Assembly: GCA_036389695.1 (NCBI GenBank)
Contig: DASVWG010000291.1
Coordinates: 1 to 54,452, forward strand
Direction: 5' to 3'
DNA length: 54,452 bases
DNA from: Pyrinomonadaceae bacterium
Lineage (GTDB): Bacteria > Acidobacteriota > Blastocatellia > Pyrinomonadales > Pyrinomonadaceae
Below, piece by piece: positions 1 to 44,864 of the stretch; positions within the stretch are counted from its first letter, which is position 1; each line of letters begins with the position of its first letter. A program made the translations under genes and the position numbers. Under the pieces are notes generated by a model. It was not told the origin of the DNA, ran no database searches, and saw only the letters and a list, made by a program, of their open reading frames with translations.

Positions 1-72
1 CAGGATAGAAAAGATTATTCAACTCAATTTCTGCATTTTTAATCCTGTTTATCCTGTCCATCCTGTTTGAAT
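1..72. repeat. CAGGAT-type hairpin repeat, copy cut by the window start
   Basis: Right arm 42-71 ATCCTGTTTATCCTGTCCATCCTGTTTGAA differs by 1 nt from arm 5876-5905; remnant of the left arm CAGGATAGA at 1-9. Confidence 0.8.
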
Positions 73-563
73 TCTTCTTTAGTAATCGAGTAGTGAACCA
101 AATCGCGCCCGTAAAATTCGCCGGTGTAGTCGAAAGTCATTCCGAGCTTTTCCATCACGCGCCGCGAAGCGGTGTTTTCGGGCACGGCGACGGCGACGAT
201 TTTATCGAGCTTCAGCGTTTCAAAGCCGTAAGCGAGAAACGCCGCGGCGGCTTCGCTTCCCAAGCCTTTGCCCCAAAACCTTCGGGCAATCGCGTAGCCG
301 ATTTCCGTTTCGCCGGTTTCCGGCAGGCGCCACAAGCCGCACCAGCCGATAAGCGCGCCCGAATGCTTTTCGACGACGGCGCAAAAGCCGATTTTATCAG
401 TCGTCCAAAGGCTCGAAACCATCTTCAGCCATTTGACGCTTTCCTGTCGATTTTGCGGCGCGCGGATAAAATGCATTATTTCGGCGTCGCGTCTGAGAGC
501 GAAAACCGCGTCCGTATCGTCTTCGGTAAAGCGCCGCAGGATGAGTCTTTCGGTTTCGAGCAT
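39..563 (-). CDS. GNAT family N-acetyltransferase (RimJ/RimL-like)
   Basis: 174-aa ORF; ERLILRRF N-terminus and motif-A-like RRFWGKGLGSEAA; last ~10 codons (KQDGQDKQD-stop) lie inside the CAGGAT-type repeat arm at 42-71. Confidence 0.8.
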   Translation of the reverse strand: MLETERLILRRFTEDDTDAVFALRRDAEIMHFIRAPQNRQESVKWLKMVSSLWTTDKIGFCAVVEKHSGALIGWCGLWRLPETGETEIGYAIARRFWGKGLGSEAAAAFLAYGFETLKLDKIVAVAVPENTASRRVMEKLGMTFDYTGEFYGRDLVHYSITKEEFKQDGQDKQD

Positions 564-680
564 AAACTACAGCCAATATAAGGCAATTTTCGCCCGTCAA
601 CAAATTTTAAAAAATAAAGGGAAGAAAAATTTCGCGCCCTTCGTCTAATGTGTGATAAAGCGTTTTGAAAGGAGCAGAAA

Positions 681-1349
681 ATGAATCGAATCGAACAAAT
701 TGAAAGCCGCCGCAGTTTTTTGAAACAGGCTGGAATCGCCGCCGCCGCGTTTCCGTTTTTAATCAGCTGCAAAGCGGACGCGCTGGCGCAAAAAAGCGAA
801 AATGAAGTATTGAGCCTGATAAAGAAAAACGCGCGCCCCATCGGCGCGGAAGGAATGGGAGCGATAGAAGCGCCCGCCGATGTTTCGTGGAAAACCGCGC
901 TGGCGAAAAAATCCGACCGCGATTTGCCGATGATTATTTCGGGCACGGTTTATCAAACCGACGGCAAAACGCCCGCGCCTAACGTTTTGATTTATTTTTA
1001 TCACACCGACAGCGAAGGCTATTACGGCAGAGGCGGCGGCGAGCCGAAACACGGGCATTTTCGCGGCTGGCTGCTGACCGGCGCGCGCGGGCAGTATGAA
1101 TTAAGCTCGATAAAGCCAGCCGCTTATCCCGTCAGAAAATTTGCCGCGCACGTTCATATGACGATTACCGCGAAAAATTTCGGCGAAGACTGGATTGACT
1201 CGATTTTGTTTGAAGACGACCCGCTTATTTCCGCGCAGGAACGAAATCAGGCTGGCGGACGAGGTGGTTTCAATCCGATTCTGAAGCTCGAAAAGGGCGC
1301 GGACGGCATTTTGCGCGGCACGCGCGATATTCAGTTATGGCAGGTTTGA
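681..1349 (+). CDS. Tat-exported intradiol ring-cleavage dioxygenase-like protein
   Basis: Twin-arginine leader SRRSFLKQAGIAAAAF; YFYHTDSEGYYG..HFRGW..YP..AHVHM pattern of the intradiol dioxygenase fold; AAGGAG RBS 8 nt upstream. Confidence 0.65.
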   Translation: MNRIEQIESRRSFLKQAGIAAAAFPFLISCKADALAQKSENEVLSLIKKNARPIGAEGMGAIEAPADVSWKTALAKKSDRDLPMIISGTVYQTDGKTPAPNVLIYFYHTDSEGYYGRGGGEPKHGHFRGWLLTGARGQYELSSIKPAAYPVRKFAAHVHMTITAKNFGEDWIDSILFEDDPLISAQERNQAGGRGGFNPILKLEKGADGILRGTRDIQLWQV

Positions 1350-1361
1350 TTAGGAGAAAAT

Positions 1362-2944: not shown

Positions 2945-3049
2945 CACAAAGGCACAAAGAACACGAAGGTTTTTAAGAATATGAAACCACAGAATTACAC
3001 AGACAAACACAGATTTATTTTTGATTCAGCTGTTCTTTGTGCCTTTGTG
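2945..3049. repeat. 19-bp perfect inverted repeat (CACAAAG units) between ECF sigma and anti-sigma genes
   Basis: CACAAAGGCACAAAGAACA (2945-2963) / TGTTCTTTGTGCCTTTGTG (3031-3049); 67-nt loop contains CACAGA x3 at 10-nt phase. Confidence 0.9.
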
Positions 3050-4431: not shown

Positions 4432-4528
4432 TCGTCCTTAGTCCTTCGTCCTTTACTGGTTGAATGGAAATTCAGAACGCAATTTATATTCAACGAGCGA
4501 AGGACAAAGGACGAAGGACTAAGGACGA
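4432..4528. repeat. 22-bp perfect inverted repeat (GTCCTT units)
   Basis: TCGTCCTTAGTCCTTCGTCCTT (4432-4453) / AAGGACGAAGGACTAAGGACGA (4507-4528); begins 1 nt after the anti-sigma stop. Confidence 0.9.
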
Positions 4529-4545: not shown

Positions 4546-5784
4546 ATGAAACGCAGTTTATTTGTTTTGACCGTTGCCAGTTATCTGGCTTTAGCTTTAA
4601 CTCTCCTTGATTTTGGCGTGCCGAAGAAAGCGGGCGCGACGCTTTCGCCGAATGATTTGGTGGTTCACGAATGGGGAACTTTTACGTCGATTGCCGGAAA
4701 AAACGGCGTGGCGATTGACTGGCGACCTTTAAACGGCGCGTCGGATTTGCCGAAATTCGTTTATACGAGCGCGAGCGAAGACGGCTATCGCCAGACTTAC
4801 GGCTCGAAATTCGTGCCGGGCGATAAAGGTCGCGTCGTCGCCAAAATTCGGATGGAAACGCCCGTCATTTATTTTTATACCGGCAAGGAAATGGAAGTTT
4901 CCGTCAACGTCGATTTTCCGCGCGGGCAAATCACCGAATGGTATCCGCAGGCGAGCATCGTCAACGGTTTTTTTGCCAAAGAGCAAACCGCCAGAAATGC
5001 GCCGCGCGGCATTCGCTGGGGCACGGTTAAGCTTCTGCCCGACGAAAAACCGGATTACCTGCGCGAGGTTTCCTACAGCCATTATTATCCGGCGCGCGAG
5101 ACCGACGCCGTGCCGGTTCAGGTCTGCAACGCCGATAAAACCAAAATGGAAAAGGAAAAATTTTTGTTTTATCGCGGCGTCGGCGATTTTCAGCTGCCTT
5201 TGAGCGTCAGATTAAGCGCCGCAAAAATCACGCTGCTCAACAACGGCGCGGGCGAAGTGAAAAACGCAATCGTCTTTGAAAATCGCGGCGGAAAAATCGG
5301 TTTTCGCTACATCGAATCAATCGGCAAACAGGCAATTCTTGAGCGCCCGGAAACCTCGCAAACGCTCGACAAAGTTTTAAACGAGCTCGAAAAAATTCTG
5401 GTTGCCGAAGGTCTCTACGCGAAAGAAGCCAAAGCGATGATAAAAACGTGGCAGGATTCGTGGTTTGAAGAAGGCTTGCGCGTTTTCTACATTTTGCCGA
5501 CCAAAGCGACCGACGAAATCTTGCCTTTAAACATCGAGCCGAAGCCGAAAGAAATCGTCCGGGTTTTAGTCGGTCGCGCCGAAGTCGTCACGCCGGAAAT
5601 GGAGCGGGACGTGCGGCGGCAAGTCGGGCTTTTGAAATCCGGTTCAGCCGAAACGCGCGCCGAAGCGCAAAAGAATTTGCAGAAACACGGCAGATTTTAC
5701 GAGCCGATTCTGAAAAGCCTTTTACAGACCGAGAAAGACGCGAAAGTGCGGGCGCACATTCAGAAACTTATTTCGCTAAGCTGA
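4546..5784 (+). CDS. Secreted hypothetical protein with C-terminal HEAT-like helical repeat
   Basis: 412 aa; signal peptide; conserved-looking HEWGTFTS block; C-terminal ETRAEAQKNLQKHGRFYEPILKSLL..DAKVRAHIQKLI; AGGAG RBS. Confidence 0.6.
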   Translation: MKRSLFVLTVASYLALALTLLDFGVPKKAGATLSPNDLVVHEWGTFTSIAGKNGVAIDWRPLNGASDLPKFVYTSASEDGYRQTYGSKFVPGDKGRVVAKIRMETPVIYFYTGKEMEVSVNVDFPRGQITEWYPQASIVNGFFAKEQTARNAPRGIRWGTVKLLPDEKPDYLREVSYSHYYPARETDAVPVQVCNADKTKMEKEKFLFYRGVGDFQLPLSVRLSAAKITLLNNGAGEVKNAIVFENRGGKIGFRYIESIGKQAILERPETSQTLDKVLNELEKILVAEGLYAKEAKAMIKTWQDSWFEEGLRVFYILPTKATDEILPLNIEPKPKEIVRVLVGRAEVVTPEMERDVRRQVGLLKSGSAETRAEAQKNLQKHGRFYEPILKSLLQTEKDAKVRAHIQKLISLS

Positions 5785-5785
5785 A

Positions 5786-5906
5786 ATTCAAACAGGATGG
5801 ACAGGATAGACAGGATGGAAACTTTTTTATTCAAACACTTTGAATAAAACCCGAAAGTTGATTTAAAAAACAATTATCCTGTCTATCCTGTCCATCCTGT
5901 TTGAAT
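5786..5906. repeat. 31-bp perfect inverted repeat (ACAGGAT(G/A)G units)
   Basis: ATTCAAACAGGATGGACAGGATAGACAGGAT / reverse complement at 5876-5906; fills the convergent gap 5785-5922. Confidence 0.9.
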
Positions 5907-5922
5907 CGCCCTTTGAATCTCC

Positions 5923-7149
5923 CTAAATCAAATGAATCAAAAGTCCGTCTCTTAATTTCGGCTCGAACCACGTCGATTTCGGCGGCATAATTTCGTCCCG
6001 GTCCGAAACCAGAAACAAATCTTCGACCGTGGTCGGAAACAGCGAGAAAGCGATTTTAAATTCGCCCGTGTCGACCAATCTTTCCAGTTCAGCCGTGCCG
6101 CGAATGCCGCCGACGAAATCGACGCGTTTGTCGGTGCGGATGTCTTCGATACCGAGAACGTTTTTTAAAATATAATTCTGCAAAATGCTGACGTCGAGCG
6201 CATCTACGGGGTCGGGCGCGCGGGCGAAAAGGACATTGAAAATCAGCTTGCGCCATTTTCCGTCGAGATACATGCAGAATTCGTTCCGGTTTTCCGGCGT
6301 CGTTTTTTCGGCGTCGATAATCTTGAAGTTTTTGCGCAGCCGCGCCAGAAATTCTTCTTCCGTCAAGCCGTTTAAATCGCGGACGACGCGGTTATACGGC
6401 AAAATCTGCAAATCTTCCGCCGGAAAAATTCCCGCCATGACGAAATTATAATCTTCCGCGCCGGTGTGATTCGGATTTTCGGCTTGCAAAATATAGCGTG
6501 CGCGGGCGGCGGCTTCGAGCCGATGATGACCGTCGGCGACATACAGCGTCGGCACTTCGGCGAAAGCGTTGACGAAATCATTCGTCGCCTCGGCGGAAAC
6601 TTTCCAGATTGTGTTCGAGATTTGCTGCGGGCAGCCGAAATCGTAAAGCGGCTCGCCCTTGACGGTTTCCGCAATCAAGCGGGAAATCGCTTCAGTTCCG
6701 CGAAAGGTGAAAAATATCAAGCCCGTCTGCGCGCGCAGGGCGAGAATGTGCTCGGTTCGGTCCTGCACTTTGTCTTCGCGCGTTTTTTCGTGTTTTTTGA
6801 TGTAACCTTTTTCGTATTCGTCGAGCGAGCAGCAGGCGACGACTCCGGTCTGCATCTGCGCGCCGTCCGTCAGGCGATAGACATACAGCGCCGGTTCCGC
6901 ATCCTGCACGAAAACTTTTTCGTCAATCAGTTTTTGCAGATTCTGCCGCGCCAGAGCGAGCGATTCTTCGGTCTCCGCCGCCGCGTCCAGCTCGGCTTCG
7001 GCGCGCGTCACGCGCAGAAAACTCAGCGGATTGTTTTCAATCAGCGCGTGCAGCTCCGCCGGATTGATGACGTCGTAAGGCACACAGGAAACCTGCTCAG
7101 CTTTTTCCCTGACCGGGCGCAAAGCACGAAAAGGTTTGATTATTGCCAC
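5923..7149 (-). CDS. DUF1015 family protein
   Basis: N-terminus MAIIKPFRALRPVREKAEQVSCVPYDVI and DGHHR motif are typical of DUF1015. Confidence 0.8.
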   Translation of the reverse strand: MAIIKPFRALRPVREKAEQVSCVPYDVINPAELHALIENNPLSFLRVTRAEAELDAAAETEESLALARQNLQKLIDEKVFVQDAEPALYVYRLTDGAQMQTGVVACCSLDEYEKGYIKKHEKTREDKVQDRTEHILALRAQTGLIFFTFRGTEAISRLIAETVKGEPLYDFGCPQQISNTIWKVSAEATNDFVNAFAEVPTLYVADGHHRLEAAARARYILQAENPNHTGAEDYNFVMAGIFPAEDLQILPYNRVVRDLNGLTEEEFLARLRKNFKIIDAEKTTPENRNEFCMYLDGKWRKLIFNVLFARAPDPVDALDVSILQNYILKNVLGIEDIRTDKRVDFVGGIRGTAELERLVDTGEFKIAFSLFPTTVEDLFLVSDRDEIMPPKSTWFEPKLRDGLLIHLI

Positions 7150-7184: not shown

Positions 7185-7664
7185 TTATTTCTTTTTATTG
7201 ACTTCCTTATCGAGTCTTTCCAATTCTTTGTCGACCGTTTCGAATTTTTCGTTAAAATTTTCGATTGTGTCGTAAAACATATCGCCGGCGGCAACTTTCC
7301 AGCGTCCGTCTTCCTTGACAAAGTCCATTTCAATCCACGAATCGGTATATTTATTTCTGACTTCGACCGTCGCCTTGCTGCCGTTTATTTTCTCGTTTCT
7401 GGTTTCAGGATTTTGCAGAATCGGCGGAATCACAGGCTCGTTTTTTTGAATCGCTTCTTCCAGCGTCATGCCTTCTTCTTTGGCGGTTTCTTCCATCAGT
7501 TGAATGGTTTTTTTTGAAGCGGTTTCTTTTATTTTGTCGAGATTTTTCGATTTTATCGCCTCGACATACTGCTTTAAAGCTTCCGTCGGCGACGTTTCCT
7601 GCAGCTGCCCGCAGGCAGCGGCTAAAAGAGCGAAAAGAATAATGAATTTGCCGTAAGTTTTCAT
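7185..7664 (-). CDS. Small lipoprotein, paralog 1 of 4 (DUF4878/NTF2-like, family from memory)
   Basis: Lipobox LLAAAC; shared core SPTE..K.Y.EA.K.K......K......M.E.AK....T.EE.I...PE.RNEKI.G..ATVEV.N....W....FVKE.G.WK.A. Confidence 0.75.
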   Translation of the reverse strand: MKTYGKFIILFALLAAACGQLQETSPTEALKQYVEAIKSKNLDKIKETASKKTIQLMEETAKEEGMTLEEAIQKNEPVIPPILQNPETRNEKINGSKATVEVRNKYTDSWIEMDFVKEDGRWKVAAGDMFYDTIENFNEKFETVDKELERLDKEVNKKK

Positions 7665-7666: not shown

Positions 7667-8206
7667 CTATTTTTTATTTTCGACGGTTTTGGGAGATTTA
7701 TTATTGCCGTTGGCGGGCGATGAATTATTGGCGTTCTCGGTCAGAATTTTCAGTAAACCGCCGAGCTGTTTGTCTAATTCTTCCATAAACTTATCCATCG
7801 CCATTTTCCATTCGCCGTTTTCGCGGACGAAATACATTTTCTCCCATCTGCCCGAAACCGGGTGCTGTATCTCGACGGTAGCCGCGTCGCCTTCAATGGT
7901 TTCATTGCGCATTTCGGGAAGCTCTTTCAGAAATTTCCCGCTGTCGCCGATTAAGATTTCGTCAAGCGTGGTATTTTTCTTTTTCGCCGCATCTTCATAC
8001 ATCTTTAAAGAATTTTGCGAGAGAGTTTTTTTAACGGCAGCGACATCTTTTTCGTTTTTGGCTTTAATAAATGCTTTAAAAACTTCCGTCGGCGAGCCGG
8101 TCGGCAGTTGCTGCGGCGGCGGCTGTTGCTGCGCCTGCGGCGCGACGCCGCAGGCTGTAAACGCGAGGGCAAGCAAAATAATCTTCAATAATTTATTGAT
8201 TTTCAT
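7667..8206 (-). CDS. Small lipoprotein, paralog 2 of 4
   Basis: Lipobox LAFTAC; same core motif (PEMRNETIEGDAATVEI...YFVRENGEWKMA); only 2 nt from paralog 1. Confidence 0.75.
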   Translation of the reverse strand: MKINKLLKIILLALAFTACGVAPQAQQQPPPQQLPTGSPTEVFKAFIKAKNEKDVAAVKKTLSQNSLKMYEDAAKKKNTTLDEILIGDSGKFLKELPEMRNETIEGDAATVEIQHPVSGRWEKMYFVRENGEWKMAMDKFMEELDKQLGGLLKILTENANNSSPANGNNKSPKTVENKK

Positions 8207-8796: not shown

Positions 8797-8936
8797 AATT
8801 TTCCTTTCCGATAGTTTAAAATGTGCAAGTATAACTCAAAATCCGTTTGTTTTTCAGAAACCGCGACGCGAAATTTCGCGACGGGAAAATCGTTTTCGAT
8901 TCGGTAAAACGACGAAACCGTTCGCTTTGCTTCAGA

Positions 8937-11308: not shown

Positions 11309-11328
11309 TAAATTTTGAATTTAAAGTT

Positions 11329-17895: not shown

Positions 17896-19057
17896 AATAA
17901 TCCAACCAAATTCAACCATCGGCGTTTTCGGCAGCGGTCAGCTCGGGCGGATGTTCGCCATCGAGGCGCGCAAGATGGGTTATCGCGTGCACACGTTTTC
18001 GCCCGCGTCCGACACGCCGACCGGACAGGTCGCCGATTTTGAAACTTCCGCCGATTATGAAGATTTAGGAAAGGTCAGAAAGTTTGCCGAAGCGGTCGAT
18101 GTCGTGACGTTTGAATTTGAAAACGTGCCGTCAAAAACGGTCGAAGTCGCGGCGCAGTTTGTCGCGGTTCACCCGAAGGGCGAAATTCTGCACACGACGC
18201 AGAACCGCCTGCGCGAAAAAACTTTTCTTTCGCAGAACGGCTTTCCCGTGACGCCTTTCCGGCACGTTAAAACTCTGGAAGATTTAAGCAGCGCGGCTCG
18301 CGAAACCGGTTTTCCGTGCGTGTTGAAAACCGCCGGTTTCGGTTACGACGGTAAAGGTCAGACGAAAATCGAAGCTTTCGGGGAAATCGAAAACGCTTTC
18401 GCCGCTTTGAAAAATCAGGAAGCCGTGCTGGAAGCCTTTGTCGAATTTGAAAAGGAAATTTCGGTCGTCTGCGCGCGCGATTGGACGGGCGATTTCGCGC
18501 ATTACGGCGTCATCGAAAACGAGCACGCGCGGCATATTCTGGACGTTTCTTTCGCGCCCGCGCTCGTCACGGAAAAAATTTATCGGGAAGCGATTGAAAT
18601 CGCGCGCTCTGTTGCCGAAGCTTTCGATTACGTCGGAACTTTGTGCGTCGAATTTTTTCTGACGAAAGACGAGAAGCTGCTCATTAACGAGCTTGCGCCG
18701 CGCCCGCATAATTCCGGTCACCTGACTTTCGATGCGTGCGCCGTATCGCAGTTTGAACAGCAATTGCGCGCCGTCTGCGGCTTGCCGCTCGGCTCGACCG
18801 AATTTTATAAACCGGCGGCGATGGCAAATCTGCTCGGCGACGTCTGGCGCGCGGGCGAGCCTGTCTGGACGAATGCTTTAAAGTTTCCGAATTTAAAATT
18901 GCATCTTTACGGCAAAGCCGAACCGCGCGGCGGGCGCAAAATGGGACACCTGACGGCGCTCGCCGGAACGGCGCGGGAAGCGGTCGAGACGGTGAGAAAA
19001 GCGAGAGAGGAATTAGCCGCGAACAAATCCGAAAAAGCGCGAACAGAGAGAAATTAG
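17888..19057 (+). CDS. purK: N5-carboxyaminoimidazole ribonucleotide synthase
   Basis: IGVFGSGQLGRMF, ATP-grasp body, NELAPRPHNSGH; GTG start and TAG stop both lie inside CACGAAA-family repeat arms. Confidence 0.9.
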   Translation: MAKIIQPNSTIGVFGSGQLGRMFAIEARKMGYRVHTFSPASDTPTGQVADFETSADYEDLGKVRKFAEAVDVVTFEFENVPSKTVEVAAQFVAVHPKGEILHTTQNRLREKTFLSQNGFPVTPFRHVKTLEDLSSAARETGFPCVLKTAGFGYDGKGQTKIEAFGEIENAFAALKNQEAVLEAFVEFEKEISVVCARDWTGDFAHYGVIENEHARHILDVSFAPALVTEKIYREAIEIARSVAEAFDYVGTLCVEFFLTKDEKLLINELAPRPHNSGHLTFDACAVSQFEQQLRAVCGLPLGSTEFYKPAAMANLLGDVWRAGEPVWTNALKFPNLKLHLYGKAEPRGGRKMGHLTALAGTAREAVETVRKAREELAANKSEKARTERN

Positions 19058-19223
19058 CCACGAAAGAACACGAAAAAGCACGAAACAAGAAGAAAGAAAT
19101 TAGCCCGCGAAATACGCGAAAGAAACGAAAAGGAAAACAAATACTGAAATTTTATTTATTTTCTTTTTCGCGCCTTTTCGCGTGTTTCGCGGGCTAATGT
19201 TTTAAGTTTTCTTTCGCGGCTAA
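19054..19223. repeat. Nested double inverted repeat, CACGAAA/TTAGCC family
   Basis: Outer TTAGCCACGAAAGAA.. / ..TTCTTTCGCGGCTAA; inner TTAGCCCGCGAAATACGCGAAA (19100-) / TTTCGCGTGTTTCGCGGGCTAA (-19197); fills the purK/DLH convergent gap. Confidence 0.85.
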
Positions 19224-19226
19224 TCT

Positions 19227-24918: not shown

Positions 24919-25111
24919 AATGTAGGGGCACGCCCGCGTGCCTGCCCAATGAGCGTAGCGAATAAGTTTAAGAAATTAGCCACGAAATTTCACGAAAAAA
25001 CACGAAATAAATCATAAAAATATTTCGTGTTTTTTTCGTGTTCTTTCGTGGCTAATCGTTTTTCGCGCTGCCAGCACTCATTGGGCAGGCACAAGACCTG
25101 CCCCTACATTT
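24918..25111. repeat. Composite: outer REPIN-like doublet enclosing an inner CACGAAA-family hairpin
   Basis: Outer AAATGTAGGGGCA-N7/8-TGCCTGCCCAATGAG in inverted copies (24918-24953, 25077-25111); inner TTAGCCACGAAATTTCACGAAAAAACACGAAAT (24976-25008) / reverse complement-like arm to 25055. Confidence 0.85.
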
Positions 25112-26201: not shown

Positions 26202-26239
26202 TCGTAAATCGTAAAACGGAAATCCGAAATCGGCAATCG

Positions 26240-26276
26240 AAAATAAAAATGGCGCGTTTCCCGAAGGAAACGCGCC
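26240..26276 (-). terminator. Intrinsic terminator after the TonB-dependent receptor
   Basis: GGCGCGTTTCC-CGAA-GGAAACGCGCC (26251-26276), followed on the minus strand by ATTTTTATTTT. Confidence 0.8.
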
Positions 26277-29541: not shown

Positions 29542-29890
29542 ATTTTGAAATAGAAATTTAGAAACAAAATTACGTGTTGGTTGGAAACATCTTAATTTTT
29601 GGATTTTGAATTTTAGTTTTTGGATTTTGTCACGAAGAATTTTTTACGCAACTCAAAGTCAAAATTCCGAATCGGCTTTCGTTGAACTTTCCAACTTGTT
29701 GAAAACTCACACAATTAGCACTTTCATAACACCCGCTATGAAAATATTTTTTGCCAAATTGTGGGTTTACACTGAAAGACCATAAAATTTTAAGCAATTT
29801 AAGTTCCTAAAATTTCAGTCTTTCCGCATAAATTTATTATCGCGGCGGCTGATTAAATCGCTGTGACGGCGGGCGCGGCGGACGGGCGCG

Positions 29891-30880: not shown

Positions 30881-31948
30881 ATGAAAAAAATCATCTCTAT
30901 CGCTTTCATACTGATTTTTGCCGGTTTCAGCTTCGCGCAGGAAACGCCGCCGCAGCAGAAACCGCTGACGCAAGCCGAATATGTCAGGCTGCTTTACGAT
31001 TTGGAAAAAAATCCGCGCAAGCGCGACGAAGTCATCGAAGCCGTGAGAAAACGCGGGCTCGGTTTCACCGTCACGGACGGAATCAAAAGCCTGACCATCA
31101 CCAAAAGCCGCAACGACGCCGAACTCAAACGCGCTCTGGAAGAAGCCTCGCGGCGGCGTGAAAACCCGACCGCCTCGCAGCCGCCGACCGAAAAAGAAAG
31201 CGCGGAAGTTTTAGCCAAATCGCGGCAGGCGACGCTCGAGGCGGTTGACGAGATGCCGGATTTCGTCGTCAAACAGATGATTCAGCGCTCGGAAGCTTAT
31301 GCCGGAACGAACAATTTCAAAAATCTGGACCGGCTGATTGTCGCCGTCAGCTATCGCTCGGAAGGCGCGGAAGAATACAAAATTTTAAGCTTAAACGGCG
31401 TCCTGCAGGATAATCCCAAGCCGAAAGGAACTTATTCGGAGCTCGGCGGAGCCAGCTCGACCGGTGAATTCGTCACGGCTCTGGCGGCGATTTTCAAGCC
31501 CGAAAGCGAAACGAGATTTGAAGTTATCGACACGGATTTGATTCGCGGTCGCCGCACTATCGTCTATGGCTTTGAAATTAAGAAAGACAAATCTCCGCAG
31601 CAAATCAGGACTTCACTCGGCGCCGGAGGCTCGACCTTGAGCGGAACGAAAGGGAAAATCTGGATTGACCGCGAAAACTTTCGCGTTTTACGCGTCGAAT
31701 CGCAGGCGACCGGGATTCCCGATGATTTTCCGATTCGCGCCGTCAGCCGCGTTATCGATTATGATTGGGTAACGATTTCCGATATGAAATTTCTTCTGCC
31801 TTTGCTCTCGGACGTGCGCCTGACCTATCGCGAAAATCGACAGCTTTTCGAATCGCGTAACCTGATTCGCTTCAAAGAGTATCAAAAATTCGGTTCGGAC
31901 GTGAAGGTTCTGGACGACGAGCAGGAAATGCCGGAAGAAAAACCGTAA
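30881..31948 (+). CDS. Secreted hypothetical protein
   Basis: 355 aa; signal peptide MKKIISIAFILIFAGFSFAQ; no recognised motif. Confidence 0.6.
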   Translation: MKKIISIAFILIFAGFSFAQETPPQQKPLTQAEYVRLLYDLEKNPRKRDEVIEAVRKRGLGFTVTDGIKSLTITKSRNDAELKRALEEASRRRENPTASQPPTEKESAEVLAKSRQATLEAVDEMPDFVVKQMIQRSEAYAGTNNFKNLDRLIVAVSYRSEGAEEYKILSLNGVLQDNPKPKGTYSELGGASSTGEFVTALAAIFKPESETRFEVIDTDLIRGRRTIVYGFEIKKDKSPQQIRTSLGAGGSTLSGTKGKIWIDRENFRVLRVESQATGIPDDFPIRAVSRVIDYDWVTISDMKFLLPLLSDVRLTYRENRQLFESRNLIRFKEYQKFGSDVKVLDDEQEMPEEKP

Positions 31949-31998
31949 ACATTTAACATTTAACATTTATCGGTCTTGAATGATAAATGTTAAATGTT
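31948..31998. repeat. 17-bp perfect inverted repeat (AACATTT units) with GGTCTTGAAT loop
   Basis: AACATTTAACATTTATC (31955-31971) / GATAAATGTTAAATGTT (31982-31998), plus one extra unit on the left; overlaps both flanking stop codons. Confidence 0.9.
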
Positions 31999-32182
31999 AC
32001 TTGAGAAAGTCGTAGCCGAAATAAGTCGCGGCGATAATCAGAGCCAGCCAGACCAAGCCTTTAATAAAGAAAAATAAAAAACCGGCGATGCCGAAGCGTT
32101 TCAGCCATTTATTAAGAGGATTTGTTTTTTCTTTCGTTTCCCGCATCATCATAAAAATAACTTTTTTGCACGAGTTTTTCAA
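31997..32182 (-). CDS. Possible small membrane protein
   Basis: 61-aa ORF with one or two hydrophobic spans (FGIAGFLFFFIKGLVWLALIIAATYF); stop overlaps a repeat arm; coding status unproven. Confidence 0.35.
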   Translation of the reverse strand: MKNSCKKVIFMMMRETKEKTNPLNKWLKRFGIAGFLFFFIKGLVWLALIIAATYFGYDFLK

Positions 32183-32210: not shown

Positions 32211-32891
32211 ATGAAAAAACATTTTTGGAATTTTACCGCGCTCGTTTTTTGTTTTATTCTTTTTTCGTCCCTAAGTTTCGCACAGGACGCGCCGCCGCAG
32301 GAAGAAAACAAACGTGAGGCTGATTTGGTCGAACTCGTCAAACTCGATAAAACAATAAAACTCGATATTCGCTACAGTCGCACGGACAATTTCGTCGGCA
32401 AAGCCGTCTACACCGAAGCGCGCGCTTTTTTGCAGCGTCCCGCCGCCGAAGCGCTTCTGCGCGTGCATAAAAAGCTGAAAAAACAAAATCTCGGCTTGGT
32501 CATTTTCGACGGCTATCGCCCGTGGTCGGTGACCAAAATTTTCTGGGAAGTGACGCCCGAAGACAAGCGAAAATTTGTCGCGAATCCGAAAACCGGCTCG
32601 AAACACAATCGCGGCTGCGCGGTCGATTTGAGCATCTACGACAGGAAAACCGGAAAGCTCGTCGAGATGCCTTCGGATTTCGACGAATTTACCGAGCGCG
32701 CCTCGCCCGATTACGCGGGCGGAACGGAAAAAGCGAGAGAAAATCGTGATTTGCTGCGCCGTTTAATGGAAGCCGAAGGCTTCACCGTCAACGCCAACGA
32801 ATGGTGGCATTTCGATTATAAAAACTGGCAGGAATACGCGATTTACGACATCGCTTTTTCGGAGATAAAACCCGACAAAAAAAGAAATTAG
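32211..32891 (+). CDS. D-alanyl-D-alanine dipeptidase (peptidase M15D, VanX/DdpX-like), exported
   Basis: Signal peptide; GYRPW, SKHNRGCAVDL, EWWHFDY metal/active-site blocks; last two codons plus TAG come from the CACGAAA-family repeat. Confidence 0.85.
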   Translation: MKKHFWNFTALVFCFILFSSLSFAQDAPPQEENKREADLVELVKLDKTIKLDIRYSRTDNFVGKAVYTEARAFLQRPAAEALLRVHKKLKKQNLGLVIFDGYRPWSVTKIFWEVTPEDKRKFVANPKTGSKHNRGCAVDLSIYDRKTGKLVEMPSDFDEFTERASPDYAGGTEKARENRDLLRRLMEAEGFTVNANEWWHFDYKNWQEYAIYDIAFSEIKPDKKRN

Positions 32892-33047
32892 CCACGAAAG
32901 AACACGAAAGAGCGCGAAAAAGATTTAGCCGCGAATAACATGAATGTCACGAATAAGAAATAAAAATAATATTCGTGTCATTTGTGTAATTCGCGGCTGA
33001 CTTTCTTATTTCTCCTTTCGTGCTTTTTCGTGCCTTTTCGTGGCTAA
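32888..33047. repeat. Nested double inverted repeat, CACGAAA/TTAGCC family
   Basis: Outer TTAGCCACGAAAGAACACGAAAGAGCGCGAAAAAG / CTTTCGTGCTTTTTCGTGCCTTTTCGTGGCTAA; inner TTAGCCGCGAATAACATGAATGTCACGAAT (32925-) / ATTCGTGTCATTTGTGTAATTCGCGGCTGA (-33000). Confidence 0.85.
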
Positions 33048-33058
33048 ATCTTTTTGCT

Positions 33059-34480: not shown

Positions 34481-34489
34481 TTTTTCTCC

Positions 34490-34810: not shown

Positions 34811-34814
34811 AATT

Positions 34815-35779: not shown

Positions 35780-35850
35780 TCACTATAACGTATCCCCAAA
35801 AACGAAAAAATATTCAAATTTTTTTAGAAGCGGTTTGGAAATAGGAATTT

Positions 35851-35980
35851 TGTAACGCCGCCATCTTGGCGGCTGTCCGGCGGGCATCTTGCCTGCCGTT
35901 GTGCCCGCAATGAAGCTGATTTTTGTTTACAGGCGGCGGCAAGATGCCGCCGCGACAGCCAGCAAGATGCTGGCGCTACA
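35851..35980. repeat. Four small GC hairpins with ATCTT/AAGAT loops arranged as an inverted doublet of doublets
   Basis: GCCGCC-ATCTT-GGCGGC (35857-73), GGCGGGC-ATCTT-GCCTGCC (35879-97), GGCGGC-AAGAT-GCCGCC (35935-51), GCCAGC-AAGAT-GCTGGC (35958-74); outer TGTAACGCC / GGCGCTACA. Confidence 0.85.
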
Positions 35981-36082
35981 ATTTCAGCGAATCTTTTGAA
36001 CCTACGCTTTTCTTGCAAATCCGGGCGTAAAGGCATAAATTACTTTTCGTTTTATCAAAACCCGAAAAGGAGTGAAAGAAAA

Positions 36083-36406
36083 ATGTCTATTACCGTTACT
36101 TTTACGCCTGAGTCGATGAGTTCCAGCCAGTATGAGGAAATCATCAAAAGGCTTAAGCAGGCAGGTGCCGACAAGCCGCGCGGCAGACTTTTTCACGTTT
36201 GTCACGGCGACGCCGACCATCTGCGTGTTCTGGACGTTTGGAATTCGATAGAGGATTTTCAGGAGTTCGGGCAGACGCTGATACCAATTATCGGAGAAGT
36301 CGGCGTCATCTCTGCCGAACCAGAAATCCGTGAGGTGTATAGCTTCTCAGATGATATAAACACTATTGATATTGACATAGATACTTCAAGGTTTCATGAC
36401 CTGTAA
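36083..36406 (+). CDS. Small dimeric alpha/beta-barrel (ABM-like) protein
   Basis: 107 aa from ATG 36083 with AAAGGAG RBS; MS..QYEEI...L......P.G.LFHVC.......RVLDVWNS.EDFQEFG pattern. Confidence 0.55.
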   Translation: MSITVTFTPESMSSSQYEEIIKRLKQAGADKPRGRLFHVCHGDADHLRVLDVWNSIEDFQEFGQTLIPIIGEVGVISAEPEIREVYSFSDDINTIDIDIDTSRFHDL

Positions 36407-36442
36407 AAAGGGCAAAGCCGTTTGACCTTGCCCTTTCGTTTT
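36405..36442. terminator. Bidirectional terminator between the ABM-like gene and the M16 peptidase
   Basis: AAAGGGCAA-12 nt-TTGCCCTTT flanked by an A-run and CGTTTT. Confidence 0.7.
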
Positions 36443-36460
36443 AAGCCAATCAGATTGATT

Positions 36461-39295: not shown

Positions 39296-39348
39296 CGCAA
39301 ACCCCTTTTGATTTTTTTTCGACGCGGCGAGTCACGAGTGGGAAACAA

Positions 39349-39420
39349 GGCAAAAGCCAAAAGTAAAAAGTAAAATTGTTTCACCTTTTTACTTTTTACT
39401 TTCTACTTTCTGCTTTCTGC
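39349..39420. repeat. Inverted repeat of (A/G)GTAAAA / GCAAAAG units
   Basis: Perfect 16-bp core AAAGTAAAAAGTAAAA (39360-39375) / TTTTACTTTTTACTTT (39387-39402), with imperfect unit extensions on both sides. Confidence 0.8.
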
Positions 39421-39487
39421 TTCTTCGGTGACTTGCTGAGTCTTTATGATTTAATTCTACTAATTTTATAGACGTAAGGAAACTGTT

Positions 39488-40324
39488 TTACGTTTCAACT
39501 TTGGCGATTGCCAGCACTTTTTCCTGTTTGGAGACGACCACGCCGCCGGGTTTTTCGGCGGTGACGGCAAAGAGCGTCGGTTTTTGAACTTTTATTTTGG
39601 CGTCAATCGGAATAATCACTTCGCCGCCGCTGACGTCGAAAACGCCGCCGTCGACCGGAGTTTTCGGGTCTTGATTCGAAGCGAAAATCCAGAGCTGATA
39701 CTGCTCCTTCGCCCGGTCATTGACCGGGACGCCGCGCAGGCGCAGGAAACCTTTCTGCGCCGCATCGCTCCACGCCACATCGCCCAGAACTTCGGACGGA
39801 TTTTTCGGATTCGTCAAAGTCGTTTTGACGACATCAGCCGAAGCCAGAAGCTGTTCGAGCTGCTGAGACACGGGCGGCGTCGGCGTCGGCGTTATTTGCT
39901 GCTGAACATAAATTATTTCCGGATTCCGCCGGGTTATCCAAACATTTACTGCCAGCACAATACAGGCGAGCGCCGCGACCAGCCAGCCGAGCCATTGCCG
40001 CGATGAAGAGCGCGGCGGCTCGAAAGCGAAAGTTTTTTGATATTCTTCTTCTGTTTGCGCGGCAGGCGCGCTTCTTTCCTGCGACGCGAAAAATTTATCG
40101 GCGTCGGCTAAGATTTTCGCCTGCAAATGCGCGGGCATCGGTTCGGAAATGTCCAGATTCGTTAAGCTCACACCTGAGGCGGCGATTTCAAAAGAATCGT
40201 CCGCTTTTAATTCGGGAAAAAGTTTTTCCAGTTCTTCAAGCTCCGCCCGCTCGGCTTCGCTTAAATCGAAAAGCGCTTTTCCGGCAAGGAGTTCCAGCAT
40301 TTTTTCTTTGTCCTGTTCGCTCAT
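39488..40324 (-). CDS. Anti-sigma factor, RskA (anti-sigma-K)-like
   Basis: Single TM (WLVAALACIVLAVNVWI), C-terminal YQLWIF...TLFAVTAEKPGGVVVS block; ATGA overlap with the sigma gene. Confidence 0.7.
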   Translation of the reverse strand: MSEQDKEKMLELLAGKALFDLSEAERAELEELEKLFPELKADDSFEIAASGVSLTNLDISEPMPAHLQAKILADADKFFASQERSAPAAQTEEEYQKTFAFEPPRSSSRQWLGWLVAALACIVLAVNVWITRRNPEIIYVQQQITPTPTPPVSQQLEQLLASADVVKTTLTNPKNPSEVLGDVAWSDAAQKGFLRLRGVPVNDRAKEQYQLWIFASNQDPKTPVDGGVFDVSGGEVIIPIDAKIKVQKPTLFAVTAEKPGGVVVSKQEKVLAIAKVET

Positions 40325-40887: not shown

Positions 40888-41048
40888 AACCTTTTACCCT
40901 TTATGATAAATTTGAAAAAACATTTCTAAACTACTTCATTTCGTCATCGCTTGCCAAGCTAAAGCGGCTCGCGATTTCAAAAATCCGCGCCGCCGTCCGT
41001 TAAATATATTCGTTATATTTGCGAGGATGGATGCAGGGAGAAGTGATG

Positions 41049-41103
41049 GTTGATAACTGATAACTGATAGTGAAAGAAAAACTATCAGTTATCAGTTATC
41101 AAC
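41049..41103. repeat. 23-bp perfect inverted repeat (GATAACT units)
   Basis: GTTGATAACTGATAACTGATAGT / ACTATCAGTTATCAGTTATCAAC, 9-nt loop GAAAGAAAA; immediately downstream of the VKOR stop. Confidence 0.9.
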
Positions 41104-41109
41104 TATCAG

Positions 41110-41553
41110 TTAATTCGTGCGCCAGAAGCGCGAAATCAGAGCGATAATGAAAAGCGTAAACGTGACGAGCGCCGAAAGCAGGCAGAATTGACAAAACGCG
41201 CCGATGACCATGCCCTGCAGATACAAAAGCCAGACGGTAAACGCCGTCATCAGGATGACCTGCACGCCGAAAAGCAGCCAGAATTTACGATTGACGAACG
41301 CCGTCAGAATCGCCAGCAGAAAAGCCGCGAAATAAGCCGCCGCGCCGTATAAAGCGAGCGGAATTCCGGCAATCGTCGCATACGGGCTGTTCAAAACCAT
41401 CTCGCAGCCTTCGAGAATACTGCACGGCACGGGGCGCGCGGTGTAATGCTGAATCGTCAGATAAAGCGCGTCGCCAAGCCCGATGAGCGTGACGACTGCC
41501 GCCACGACGGCAAATTTTTTAAACGGATTGAAAATCTTTTCGGTACTGCTCAT
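41110..41553 (-). CDS. Vitamin K epoxide reductase (VKOR) family membrane protein
   Basis: Start trimmed to ATG 41553; loop cysteines PCSILEGC and active-site CQFC; 4 TM spans. Confidence 0.75.
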   Translation of the reverse strand: MSSTEKIFNPFKKFAVVAAVVTLIGLGDALYLTIQHYTARPVPCSILEGCEMVLNSPYATIAGIPLALYGAAAYFAAFLLAILTAFVNRKFWLLFGVQVILMTAFTVWLLYLQGMVIGAFCQFCLLSALVTFTLFIIALISRFWRTN

Positions 41554-42382: not shown

Positions 42383-42390
42383 AAATTGAA

Positions 42391-42482
42391 ATCATTTATC
42401 ATTTAACATCTAACACTTATCATTTTATATTTTATTCAACCTTTGAAATGCAAAAATTGATAAATGATAAATGATAAATGTT
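42391..42482. repeat. Imperfect inverted repeat of GATAAAT units
   Basis: ATCATTTATCATTTAACAT (42391-42409) vs TTGATAAATGATAAATGATAAATGTT (42457-42482); between the dxs stop and the dsbA-like start. Confidence 0.7.
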
Positions 42483-42487
42483 CAATG

Positions 42488-44416
42488 TCATCGTAGTGTT
42501 TTCAGACGTTTTTTTCCGGCGCGGCGTTCTTCCAGAATGTCCAGGCTTTCGCGCACTTTATTATAAATTCCGTCGGCGTCCAGTCCGAATTTCGCCAGCA
42601 GAAGCTTCGGGTCGCCGTGCGTGACGATGCGGTCGGGAACGCCCATGCGCACCACTTTAACACTGTCGAGCATACCGTTTTCTTCCAAAAGCTCCATCAC
42701 GGCTGAACCGAAACCGCCCGCCAGATACGCTTCTTCGACCGTCACGATTAAACGCTTTGACTGCGCCAGCGCGAGAATCAATTCCGAATCGAGCGGTTTG
42801 ACGAAACGCGCGTTGACGACGGTCGTTTCGACGCCGTCTTTTTCTAGATTTCGCGCCGCTTCCACCGAAGGATAAACCATCGAGCCGTAAGCCAGAATGG
42901 CAATCTCGCCGCCGTCGCGCAGGATTTCGGCTTTGCCGATTTCCAGCAGCTTCGGCGCTTCGGAAATATCGACGCCGACGCCGTTTCCGCGCGGATAGCG
43001 AATCGCGGCGGGCGTGGGATGCTCAATCGCCGTCAGCAGCATATCGCGCATCTCGGCTTCGTCTTTCGGCGACATCAAAACGATGTTCGGATAACCGCGA
43101 AGATACGCAATATCGAGCAGCCCGTGATGCGTCGGACCGTCAGCGCCGACGATTCCGGCTCTGTCCATCGCAAACGTAACGTTTAAATTTTGCAGGCAGA
43201 CGTCGTGAATAATCTGGTCAAAAGCGCGCTGTAAAAACGTGGAATAAATCGCCGCGACCGGCTTTAAGCCTTCGCAAGCCATTCCCGCGCAGAACGTAAT
43301 GGCGTGCTGTTCGGCAATGCCGACATCAAACGCGCGGGCGGGATGTTTTTCGAGAATTTTGTCCAGACCCGTGCCGTCGGGCATCGCCGCCGTCAGGGCG
43401 ATGATCGATTCATCTTTGTCCATCAATTCGCACATCGTGCGCCCGAAAATTTCCGTGTACTGCGGCGGCGCGGGCTTGTTCGATTTTATCAATTTGCCGG
43501 TTTTCGCGTCGTAAGGTCCGGTCGCGTGATAAGCGTAATAATTTTTTTCGGGATTCGGAAAACCTTTGCCTTTCGTCGTCAGCGCGTGAACGATAACCGG
43601 ACCGTCATCGACCTTTTTCGCTTCTTCCAGCGCGCGCACGAGCATCGGCACATTATGTCCGTCGACGTAACCGATATATTTAAAACCCAGTTCATTGACC
43701 AATGCGCCGGGCAAAACCGCCGCCGCAATCGCGTCTTTGACGGTTTTCGCCGCTTTCCTGAGACGCTCGCCGAAACGCGGAACGCTTTCGAGCGTATCGC
43801 CGATTTCTTCTTTCAAATGCTGGTAGCTTTGCGCTTCCTTGATGCGATTCAGATAACGCGTCAGAGCGCCGACGGCGGGCGCGATGCTCATTTCGTTGTC
43901 GTTCAGCAAAACAATCAGACGCGATTTCAGATGTCCGGCTTGATTGATGGCTTCCATCGCCATTCCGCCTGCCAGAGACGAATCGCCAATCAGCGCGCAG
44001 ACGTGAAAATCCTCGCCTTTCGTATCGCGCGCAATCGCCATTCCGAGCGCGGCGGAAAGCGAAGTCGAAGCGTGTCCCGCGCCGAAAGTGTCGAATTCGG
44101 ATTCTTCGCGCCGCAGAAAACCGGAAAGACCGCCGTATTGCTTGATTGTATGAAGCTGGTCGCGTCTGCCCGTCAAAATTTTGTGCGCGTATGCCTGATG
44201 CCCGACGTCCCAGACTAATTTGTCCTGCGGCGTCTCGAAAACATAATGCATCGCCACCGCCAATTCGACCGCGCCGAGGCTCGCGCCCGTGTGCCCGCCG
44301 ACGCGCGAGGTGGTTTCGATAATAAACTGCCGCACCTCGTTTGCCACTTCCTGCAAATCCTCGACGCGCAATTGGCGCAAGTCCGCCGGTGAATTAATTT
44401 CAGATAAAAATCTCAT
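42488..44416 (-). CDS. dxs: 1-deoxy-D-xylulose-5-phosphate synthase
   Basis: 642 aa; GGHTGASLGAVELAVAMHYVF, VWDVGHQAYAHKILTGRR, GDSSLAGGMA. Confidence 0.93.
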   Translation of the reverse strand: MRFLSEINSPADLRQLRVEDLQEVANEVRQFIIETTSRVGGHTGASLGAVELAVAMHYVFETPQDKLVWDVGHQAYAHKILTGRRDQLHTIKQYGGLSGFLRREESEFDTFGAGHASTSLSAALGMAIARDTKGEDFHVCALIGDSSLAGGMAMEAINQAGHLKSRLIVLLNDNEMSIAPAVGALTRYLNRIKEAQSYQHLKEEIGDTLESVPRFGERLRKAAKTVKDAIAAAVLPGALVNELGFKYIGYVDGHNVPMLVRALEEAKKVDDGPVIVHALTTKGKGFPNPEKNYYAYHATGPYDAKTGKLIKSNKPAPPQYTEIFGRTMCELMDKDESIIALTAAMPDGTGLDKILEKHPARAFDVGIAEQHAITFCAGMACEGLKPVAAIYSTFLQRAFDQIIHDVCLQNLNVTFAMDRAGIVGADGPTHHGLLDIAYLRGYPNIVLMSPKDEAEMRDMLLTAIEHPTPAAIRYPRGNGVGVDISEAPKLLEIGKAEILRDGGEIAILAYGSMVYPSVEAARNLEKDGVETTVVNARFVKPLDSELILALAQSKRLIVTVEEAYLAGGFGSAVMELLEENGMLDSVKVVRMGVPDRIVTHGDPKLLLAKFGLDADGIYNKVRESLDILEERRAGKKRLKTLR

Positions 44417-44864
44417 TTAAAGTTTTCCGCTCGAAATAGATACTCAAGTTTCGCATTTTAACTTGCCGCCGCGTCAATGTTCAATCGCAAACGACCGGAT
44501 TGCCAAACTATTTTCGGCAATAAATTTTATAAATCTTATGTTTGCCCGCGACAGGCGCAGGCTTGCAACTCACAGTTTCAGCTCTGCAATTCACAAGCCG
44601 GACGGTTGTAGCTGACGGTTGTAAAGCCGCTTTTCTCGAAAAATGCTTTATTTATAATGTGAATCTAACGCAAAAACGCCGGAAAAGCGGAAAACGGAAA
44701 GCAGAATCTTTTTGCATTTTGCATTTTACTCTTTGCGTTTTGCCTTATTTACATTTCTTTACACCCGTCTGGTAAAATACTTCGACCAAACGCTTTCGTT
44801 AAGCATCAAAAATAGCGGAAAGCAAAAGCCAACCAAAAAATTCAAGAGAGGTAACCAAAAAATA

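Follow-up and report, generated by a model that had tools for sequence, protein, structure and literature searches.

The 54,452-nt contig DASVWG010000291.1 of a Pyrinomonadaceae bacterium (phylum Acidobacteriota; assembly GCA_036389695.1), referred to below as the window, holds in its intergenic gaps long hairpins whose arms consist of short tandem units, and approximately one gene in five of this bacterium ends beside such a structure. With about even confidence, we read these hairpins as palindromic short-tandem-repeat elements, a lineage-specific, multi-family class of intergenic elements in part of the Pyrinomonadaceae, which would have been shaped by slippage and by exchange between arms and which probably serve as the 3'-end hairpins of transcripts. 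The closest known kind is the short tandemly repeated repetitive (STRR) hairpin of filamentous cyanobacteria.

An ungapped hairpin scan (at least 18 matched bp, loop of at most 120 nt) returned 11 hairpins in the window, compared to a mean of 0.13 and a maximum of 1 in 30 simulations of the window by a first-order Markov model with its dinucleotide transition frequencies. The long intergenic hairpins with tandem-unit arms described in the original prediction, which had been made from the sequence alone, were thus borne out, and the sites that it listed were recovered. A repeat search of the window also found 60 inverted-repeat pairs with members no more than 200 nt apart. Tandem Repeats Finder resolved the hairpin arms into arrays of period 7, 9 or 10, present in both arms of each hairpin, with period-7 arrays at 4434, 4500, 31948, 31979, 39359, 39385, 41051, 41083, 42391 and 42458; five heptamer sets in the window are paired in this manner and three are unpaired. 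The stems are 19-36 bp long and A/T-rich, the loops measure 9-67 nt and are likewise A/T-rich, and at least eight unit types occur in the 54 kb. RNA-fold z-scores range from -4.4 to -12.6 over 11 folds (10 hairpins, one of them on both strands). One listed site did not withstand this test: the degenerate GCAAAA hairpin at 44668-44745, in a divergent gap, has a z-score of -0.7, and 39 of 200 shuffles fold as well.

The 10 nt lying 3' of the hairpins contain a mean of 3.5 T, with T-runs at only a few, and the lack of a U-tract predicted for most of the hairpins therefore holds. A-rich left arms with T-rich right arms form a 2:1 majority, as they do in the ordinary hairpins of the loci examined, and the hairpins of the ATTAGCC family are bordered by A-rich and T-rich stretches. 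Canonical terminators are also present in the window; the one predicted at 11275-11308 was recovered by the scan as 11276-11309, and those at 26240-26276, 36405-36442 and 45453-45481 were seen by reading the sequence alone. An AGCC/GGCT clamp was considered as a general terminal motif and rejected, as it was found in nine of 172 hairpins, no more often than other 4-mers, and is specific to the CGCG/CACG family.

On a gene map built from codon usage, five of the tandem-arm hairpins of the window lie in convergent gaps (one of these only if a small open reading frame (ORF) at 31997-32182 is real), five lie between co-directional genes and one is cut by the window start; none of the approximately 11 divergent gaps contains one. 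Every gap that holds such a hairpin includes a gene 3' end, in agreement with the predicted siting between convergent or co-directional genes, and every convergent gap of the window has a hairpin of some sort, be it tandem-arm, canonical terminator, REP-like (repetitive extragenic palindromic) or A/T-run. The further claim that the hairpins begin 0-3 nt from stop codons is correct for those at 2945, 4432, 5786, 19054, 31948, 32888, 41108 and 42487, where the hairpin lies within this distance of the stop codon or overlaps it, but not for those at 24976 (approximately 57 nt) and 39344 (approximately 62 nt). A similar preference was observed over approximately 1.7 Mb of related loci that were compared with the window (numbered L001 onward): of 54 periodic-arm hairpins, 42 have a predicted stop no more than 60 nt away and 15 have one no more than 5 nt away, and such hairpins are found in 8.6% of convergent, 5.2% of co-directional and 2.0% of divergent gaps. 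Three elements of the window reach into genes, where they provide the stop codons of purK and of a dipeptidase gene and the tail of a GNAT acetyltransferase. The flanking genes are ordinary ones (purK, dxs, DsbA-like, VKOR, two pairs of extracytoplasmic-function (ECF) sigma and anti-sigma factors, GNAT acetyltransferase, DUF1015 and D-Ala-D-Ala dipeptidase).

Conservation and change in related genomes

In all loci together, 29 of the 54 periodic-arm hairpins have period 7, nine have period 9 and seven have period 10, and the arms of non-periodic hairpins show no favoured lag. The units of the relatives are diverse (AAAATGG, AAGTAAA, TTGGTGG x5, GAGGGAT x4, CATTCAA x4, GAGTGAC, CGTAATT and AATTAAG). 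Periodic-arm hairpins number 11.0 per 100 kb in the window, 9.7 in the close clade (238 kb) and 6.8 in loci L039-L049, as against 0.7 in other loci labelled Pyrinomonadaceae and 0.6-0.8 in distant loci; the density in the close clade is approximately 10-15 times that of other Pyrinomonadaceae or other phyla. This contrast points to a lineage-specific expansion and not to a general bacterial feature. Relatives of purK come almost entirely from metagenome-assembled genomes of Pyrinomonadaceae or Blastocatellia, the closest at 87% amino-acid identity, and locus L001, which is 100% identical to window 30059-37480, is uninformative on strain variation. Two viral-contig matches to TTAGCCRCGAAANNNCRCGAAA, in contigs of 63-66% GC without hairpins, were taken as chance.

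A syntenic series of six loci (L164, L082, L165, L166, L167 and L168, with 92, 89, 86, 85, 82 and 81% protein identity, respectively, for the gene at 4546..5784) allowed individual hairpins to be followed. The ACAGGATnn hairpin at 5786-5906 occupies the same convergent gap in six genomes (the window, L164, L166, L167, L168 and L082), together with its loop and an inner hairpin. In the alignment 90% of the cells are paired, and 13 of the 46 pairs have changed on both sides, compared to 6.0 +/- 1.8 in column shuffles (none of 500 reached 13) and 2-6 with slid partners. The hairpin at 2945, between a sigma factor gene and its anti-sigma gene, is kept in L166 and L168 with compensatory changes, and several hairpins are at the same position in 3-6 species. 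Co-variation of the arms in orthologous gaps, proposed as a check on the original prediction, was accordingly found at 5786-5906, at 2945 and in the basal stem at 24921.

The same comparison bears on the suspicion that the hairpins are an artefact of assembly or sequencing, namely fold-back chimeras of a metagenome assembler. The window is indeed a metagenome contig, and its proteins are found on ENA metagenome contigs. We nevertheless attach practically no credence to this explanation, which is already refuted by the presence of the same hairpins at the same positions in independent assemblies that derive from different samples and pipelines (Logan SRR3507923, NCBI GCA_036388475.1, a JGI metagenome and ENA ERZ27286130); moreover, the hairpins lie precisely between intact genes, and their graded divergence tracks that of the flanking genes.

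The relatives also preserve changes in the units themselves. Most units in both arms of the 5786-5906 hairpin read ACAGGGAT/AAGGGGAT in L082 instead of ACAGGAT, i.e. with an added G; spacer changes in L166 are mirrored in both arms; the right arm in L168 is short by one unit; and a hairpin upstream of DUF1015 is made of 7-nt GTGATAG units in L164 and L082 versus 8-nt GTGAAAAA units in L166-L168. Uncompensated spacer substitutions were seen in L164, whereas the arms of the window are perfect. In the orthologous hairpin at L168 11243-11370 the loop is inverted with respect to window 5785-5922, L164, L166 and L167 (reverse-complement score 54 versus forward score 27), and, as this is the expected product of recombination between inverted arms, arm-to-arm recombination is implied. 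Other than the substitutions of L164, these changes are footprints of the kind of generating process that had been suggested, slippage in one arm followed by template-switch correction of the other; the template switch itself is a hypothetical step, and arm-to-arm recombination or selection on pairing fits the footprints equally well. At window 7185..7664 and 7667..8206 (both on the minus strand) there are two small genes without a Pfam match, where L082, L164 and L166-L168 have the GTGATAG/GTGAAAAA tandem hairpin; the hairpin site thus coincides with a difference in gene content.

In the six-species alignment the ACAGGAT-type cores are invariant and the 2-nt spacers are free to vary, and the 10-nt phasing of the CRCGAAA family puts its cores on one face of B-DNA. 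One possible explanation is that each core (ACAGGAT, CACAAAG, CRCGAAA, GTGA...) is the recognition unit of a protein, present in direct and inverted copies, either iteron-like or comparable to heptamer arrays for which S1, Csp or CsrA-type proteins have been suggested as ligands; cores containing GGA (ACAGGAT, AAGGAC) resemble CsrA-type motifs, which counts in its favour. We consider such binding arrays very unlikely. No motif is common to the cores of different hairpins, and a single protein could therefore not recognise all of them; sites with a 7-nt period do not stay on one helix face; part of the arm at 1-72 is coding; and no candidate protein was identified. The invariance of the cores, for its part, would also follow from the pairing constraint alone, each core being able to pair with every opposite core. 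Also on the side of protein binding, the heptamer repeats of Beggiatoaceae and Nostoc have had protein partners proposed for them, though none identified (PMC4679880; bioRxiv 10.1101/2022.06.06.494920).

The content of orthologous gaps was seen to turn over between species. In the gap between the anti-sigma gene and the next gene, the units are of the GTCCTT type in the window, TTGTCNG in L164 and CGCGGAT in L088; L166 and L168 have nested hairpins led by TTCAGCC, GC-rich hairpins of REP-like form occupy the gap in L083, L087 and L092, and in L084 too its repeat families are other than those of the window. The gap between purK and a hydrolase gene has a T(T/C)AGCGGCGAACGGCGCG hairpin in L002 and L166 and an unrelated GC-rich hairpin in L168, and gap 21857-21949 is occupied by a REP-like doublet in the window and by a GGAAAAT heptamer hairpin in L002. 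At 24919-25103, L002 has a short basal stem alone, with a compensatory change (GTAGGGG/CCCCTAC versus GTACGG/CCGTAC), and the window has two further hairpins nested in the loop of that stem. Taken together, the restriction to gaps with a gene 3' end, the replacement by other hairpin types and the maintained pairing support a functional slot.

In palindromic short-tandem-repeat elements of this kind, an A/T-rich loop is flanked by two arrays in inverted orientation, the unit being 7 nt long or, less often, 9 or 10 nt. The arrays may lengthen and shorten by replication slippage, to which a 7-nt unit size could be the most prone in many bacteria, and the complementarity of the arms may be upheld by recombination or templated copying between them, perhaps also by selection. 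Once transcribed, the 19-36 bp stem could make RNA polymerase pause or terminate even where no canonical U-tract follows, protect the RNA from 3'-to-5' exonucleases, or be a double-stranded site at which the transcript is processed between cistrons; as an outcome, convergent genes would be insulated and operon neighbours uncoupled (sigma / anti-sigma / next gene; dxs / dsbA-like).

Several observations weigh against this account. The U-tract is missing from most of the hairpins, and with their stems of 19-36 bp and loops of up to 67 nt they do not resemble proven intrinsic terminators; the roles in termination, stabilisation and processing are putative, deduced from sequence. Mismatches on the sense strand are G-U in 13 cases and A-C in 14, and as there is no excess of G-U, RNA is not singled out over DNA as the level at which pairing is kept up. 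The hairpins are dispensable at some sites: the gap between the anti-sigma gene and the next gene is reduced to 25 nt in L167 and is nearly empty in L089 and L006, and the 2945 hairpin is missing in L165 and L167. The invariance of the ACAGGAT-type cores beside variable spacers is unexpected from simple slippage of whole units. Finally, sister lineages carry approximately 15-fold fewer hairpins, a difference no less compatible with a proliferating repeat than with a required signal.

Dispersed arms and the mobile-element alternative

Some arms are nearly identical at unrelated loci. ATTAGCC-CRCGAAA arms at 19053 and 32887 (an outer left arm), 13.8 kb apart, agree at 31 of 33 positions, and the right arm at 42-72 agrees at 30 of 31 with the right arm of the 5786-5906 hairpin (5876-5906); the loops of these copies differ, and loops match between orthologous loci only. 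In L168, L008 and L044, arms together with their non-repeat leader are present at sites that are not orthologous, in one case as a solitary arm within a different hairpin. The dominant variant is specific to the genome (in the window TTAGCCRCGAA, with nine occurrences; in the 8.5-kb L083 TTAGCCGCGGAT, with five), and copies are nested at three sites of the window (32880-33055, 19012-19224 and 24921-25103). The original prediction had placed a shared architecture above any single repeat family; the number of unit types in the window agrees with this, but some of the hairpins belong to true dispersed families (ATTAGCC and ACAGGAT).

This dispersal gives rise to the main rival of the account given above, according to which the hairpins are selfish, non-autonomous mobile elements of the kind of REPINs (hairpin-forming doublets of REP sequences) or miniature inverted-repeat transposable elements (MITEs), copied to gene-end sites and into hairpin loops by an enzyme encoded elsewhere that would recognise either structure or an arm leader (ATTAGCC, ATTCAAAC), any host function being incidental. 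We hold it to be an unlikely explanation, albeit one to be kept in mind. In addition to the dispersed and nested arms and the genome-specific variants, it draws on the patchy, lineage-specific distribution, on the overlap with gene ends and the supply of stop codons, as with REP and MITE insertions, and on differences in presence between genomes that are approximately 89% identical, since the window lacks the hairpins that L082 carries at 2371-2456 and 3091-3173. A MAFFT alignment between window 8840-8960 and L082 3010-3255 was of insufficient quality for placing the insertion boundaries. Comparison of filled with empty sites brought up no convincing target-site duplication, a TA palindrome beside ATTAGCC being inseparable from an extension of the stem, and no transposase or Y1 (RAYT, REP-associated tyrosine transposase) domain was found among the approximately 40 window proteins scanned against Pfam or NCBIfam, although the enzyme could be encoded elsewhere in the genome. 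The unrelated unit families, at least eight of them in 54 kb, would need many enzymes or a sequence-blind one. Separate copies have unrelated loops, unlike those of a typical MITE; the single arms, unlike REPs, are non-palindromic and have no GTAG/CGTC tag; and the persistence of several hairpins in place across 3-6 species also speaks against mobility.

The individual hairpins and their neighbours in the window

The hairpin of 9-nt ACAGGATnn units at 1..72 is cut by the window start and is found at the orthologous place in L166, L167 and L168. Its right arm (42-72) is part of the coding sequence of the GNAT gene 39..563(-), in which it specifies the C-terminal tail ...KQDGQDKQD*, which is kept in L166 and L168; the 9-nt unit is read as x-Q-D, which explains why the ACAGGAT family keeps to a multiple of three. 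The CACAAAG-unit hairpin at 2945..3049 (19/19 bp, loop of 67 nt, fold z = -5.9) begins directly after the stop codon of an ECF sigma factor gene (2942-2944) and precedes the start of the anti-sigma gene, and the hairpin of 7-nt GTCCTT(A/C) units at 4432..4528 (23/23 bp, loop of 51 nt, z = -9.3) exactly fills the space from the anti-sigma stop codon to the ribosome-binding site of gene 4546..5784. The second ACAGGATnn hairpin, at 5786..5906 between the convergent genes 4546..5784(+) and 5923..7083(-), has a perfect stem of 31/31 bp, its arms being extendable to 49 nt at 84%, with z-scores of -12.6 and -10.6; the conserved inner hairpin of its loop is TTATTCA..TGAATAA.

Arms made of ATTAGCC followed by C(G/A)CGAAA units in 10-nt phase cluster at 19012..19224 between purK and a convergent hydrolase gene, with left arms at 19012, 19053 and 19099 and right arms ending at 19198 and 19224. 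The C-terminus of purK runs through one ATTAGCC arm and its stop codon TAG (19055-19057) lies inside the next ATTAGCC; Tandem Repeats Finder additionally reports a 41-nt higher-order duplication at 19004-19084. A further ATTAGCC + CACGAAA hairpin, in a convergent gap at 24975..25056 (z = -7.8 and -8.3), is the innermost level of a three-level nest at 24921-25103, whose outer stem AATGTAGGGGCA/TGCCCCTACATT and second stem TGCCTGCCCAATGAG/CTCATTGGGCAGGCA are both non-tandem. In the convergent gap at 32880..33055 two hairpins of this family are nested (outer 32880-32919/33016-33055, inner 32918-32955/32970-33007; z = -11.1), and the stop codon TAG (32889-32891) of the D-Ala-D-Ala dipeptidase gene is inside an ATTAGCC.

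The remaining hairpins are built of heptamers. The AACATTT hairpin at 31948..31998 (19/20 bp, loop of 11 nt, z = -5.8) extends from the stop of gene 30881..31948(+) to that of the possible ORF 31997..32182(-). This ORF may represent an uncalled small membrane protein of approximately 50-61 amino acids (…FGIAGFLFFFIKGLVWLALIIAATYFGYDFLK), its stop abutting the right arm; if it is real, the gap is convergent. The AGTAAAA/GCAAAAG hairpin at 39344..39425 (20/23 bp, z = -5.3) lies between co-directional genes on the minus strand, approximately 62 nt beyond the point where the anti-sigma gene 39488..40324 stops, and the same unit type builds hairpins in L003 and L166. At 41041..41111 a hairpin of GATAACT units, or TAACTGA in another phase, with two copies of TAACTGA in each arm (27/28 bp, loop of 9 nt, z = -11.7), abuts the stop of the VKOR-family gene 41110..41553(-). 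The GATAAAT hairpin at 42393..42488 (22/26 bp, z = -4.4) fills the entire gap from the dxs stop (42488) to the start of the DsbA-like gene (42382).

Three heptamer arrays are unpaired: six TCGGAAA-like units at 26202..26244, beside the canonical terminator 26240-26276; TTTTGGA x4.7 at 29597..29629, in a divergent promoter gap; and ATTCCAA x3.4 at 30643-30666, beside a REP-like inverted repeat at 30675-30794. As the first of these indicates, heptamer arrays occur without an inverted partner too. Tandem units of 15 nt at 54326-54432 were considered as a hairpin arm cut by the window end and rejected, since they are coding, in a pentapeptide-repeat protein (…SNLNGSNLRKADLREANL…); the ORF concerned, 53575-54450, runs off the window end and encodes a membrane-anchored pentapeptide-repeat protein.

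Other inverted repeats were observed in the window. A GC-rich REP-like palindrome (…CCGCCTGCGGTAGCGGGCGG…) forms an inverted doublet at 21836-21951, with 33-nt arms that are 97% complementary, which exactly fills a convergent gap and contains the stop codon TAG of gene 20048..21856; the palindrome is also present singly at 13706-13730, and similar elements were found at L073 2835-2907, L039 9766-9830 and L036 8495-8581. In a divergent gap beside an ECF sigma gene, 35850-35981 is an inverted repeat with 44-nt arms, 80% complementary, that resembles a bacterial interspersed mosaic element (BIME) cluster; each arm comprises two small GC hairpins with ATCTTG loops (GCCGCCATCTTGGCGGC, GGCGGGCATCTTGCCTGCC). 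A 27-nt inverted repeat at 13783-13987 (96% complementary, 151 nt apart), in a divergent gap of 492 nt, is like a MITE of approximately 205 bp and has no relation to the hairpins with tandem units. The convergent gap 50511-50583 contains an A-run/T-run hairpin (TTTAAAGAAAAGAAAAA…TTTTTCTTTTTAAA), and a 30-nt, operator-like palindrome is located at 48020-48071, in the divergent gap that precedes an ArsR-family regulator gene (48069..48512).

Relation to known repeats

The hairpins had been thought to represent an undescribed repeat class. This is not the case, as tandem 7-bp intergenic repeats that form hairpins, for example between hupS and hupL, are known as STRR, with a suggested role in transcript stability or translational coupling and a function described as unknown (PMC2670836); heptamer arrays of Nostoc are listed in PMC2408588. 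The elements of the window share with STRR the tandem 7-bp units, the many unit sequences, the intergenic location, the high copy number and the formation of a hairpin when an inverted array follows. Their dispersal is also similar: the 54 kb contain approximately 11 hairpins, each of which lies between genes or overlaps a gene end. Classical STRR units are CCCCAGT (STRR1), TTGGTCA (STRR2) and CAACAGT (STRR3), and STRR are reportedly present in RNase P RNA as well (Vioque, 1997); no array of two or more copies of the classical heptamers, in any phase, was found in the window. The present elements differ in belonging to the Acidobacteriota, in having the hairpin arrangement as the rule, in their location at gene 3' ends, often touching the stop codon, and in including families of 9- and 10-nt units whose non-repeat leaders (ATTCAAAC, ATTAGCC) are fixed. 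According to the summary given in PMC4679880, heptamers are reported to be the commonest long simple repeat in many bacteria, with polymerase slippage proposed as the cause.

A more far-reaching proposal would have a lineage-specific, transposase-free process seed and spread the gene-end hairpins: at stalled forks or breaks, fold-back or template-switch synthesis would use a tandem array as the template for its inverted complement, and arms would be moved between hairpins by recombination. It would be the same unexplained process that formed the STRR of cyanobacteria, and a general source of new 3'-end hairpins, stop codons and C-terminal tails. We regard this as improbable.

The TAACTGA repeats of Beggiatoaceae, some Cyanobacteria and Bacteroidetes (MacGregor 2015) are likewise intergenic tandem heptamers, and the hairpin at 41041-41111 uses exactly this unit; a related unit occurs in L089. 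Those repeats form 169 direct sets and one indirect set, situated just upstream of start codons, which points to translational control (PMC4679880), whereas the window has an inverted pair just downstream of a stop codon, as one of many units.

REP sequences, REPINs and BIMEs resemble the present elements in their location at gene 3' ends, their inverted doublets that form long hairpins, their conserved arms with variable spacers, their genome-specific variants and their long vertical persistence. They are short intergenic repeats at gene 3' ends, mobilised by RAYT transposases. A REP arm is a GC-rich imperfect palindrome of 20-40 nt with a GTAG/CGTC tag, whereas the arms described here are A/T-rich tandem direct repeats with neither an internal palindrome nor the tag; the window also contains genuine GC-rich REP-like palindromes (21836-21951, 13706-13730), which occupy gaps of the same kinds. 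Roles proposed for REP sequences are termination and mRNA stabilisation (PMC3733652). MITEs such as Correia, ERIC and Nezha are similar in being 50-200 bp long, foldable, intergenic and nested, in having terminal inverted repeats and in being able to supply stop codons; here no convincing target-site duplication was seen, the loop is not common to the copies, the inverted repeats are tandem-repetitive, and there is no known parent insertion sequence.

Intrinsic terminators, including bidirectional ones, are comparable in that hairpins stand right after stop codons and in every convergent gap, with an A-rich left and a T-rich right arm at 2:1. A canonical terminator has a short GC stem, a small loop and a U-tract, whereas the present stems of 19-36 bp are A/T-rich, have loops of 9-67 nt and mostly no U-tract, and canonical terminators are separate structures in the window. 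Integron attC sites were rejected: no core pair (RYYYAAC ... GTTRRRY) was present at the hairpin ends in the window, and the flanking genes are housekeeping genes (purK, dxs, sigma/anti-sigma), often convergent. Rfam 15 gave no match in the window at the gathering score, and at E <= 1 the hairpins matched only sub-threshold models of eukaryotic microRNA precursors, i.e. generic long hairpins; a scan of the window for transfer RNA and transfer-messenger RNA found none. Membership of the REP/REPIN, MITE, attC, canonical terminator and Rfam families thus fails in each case on at least one of the defining features tested.

A literature search found no description of such repeats in Acidobacteria. 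What is new here is the phylum, the dominance of the paired hairpin form, the 9- and 10-nt families with fixed leaders, and a comparative series in which change of the elements can be followed. STRR have been known for decades without an agreed origin or function, and an unrelated soil phylum now offers a second system for comparison, in which graded genomes display concerted change of units, loss of units from one arm, inversion of a loop and replacement by other hairpins, making both origin and function testable. For the annotation of Acidobacteria, it means that gene ends, stop codons and short C-terminal tails can be derived from repeats, as in the tail of GNAT gene 39..563 and the stop codons of purK and the dipeptidase gene, and that terminator predictors tuned to a short GC stem followed by a U-tract will miss most of the gene-end hairpins of this clade.

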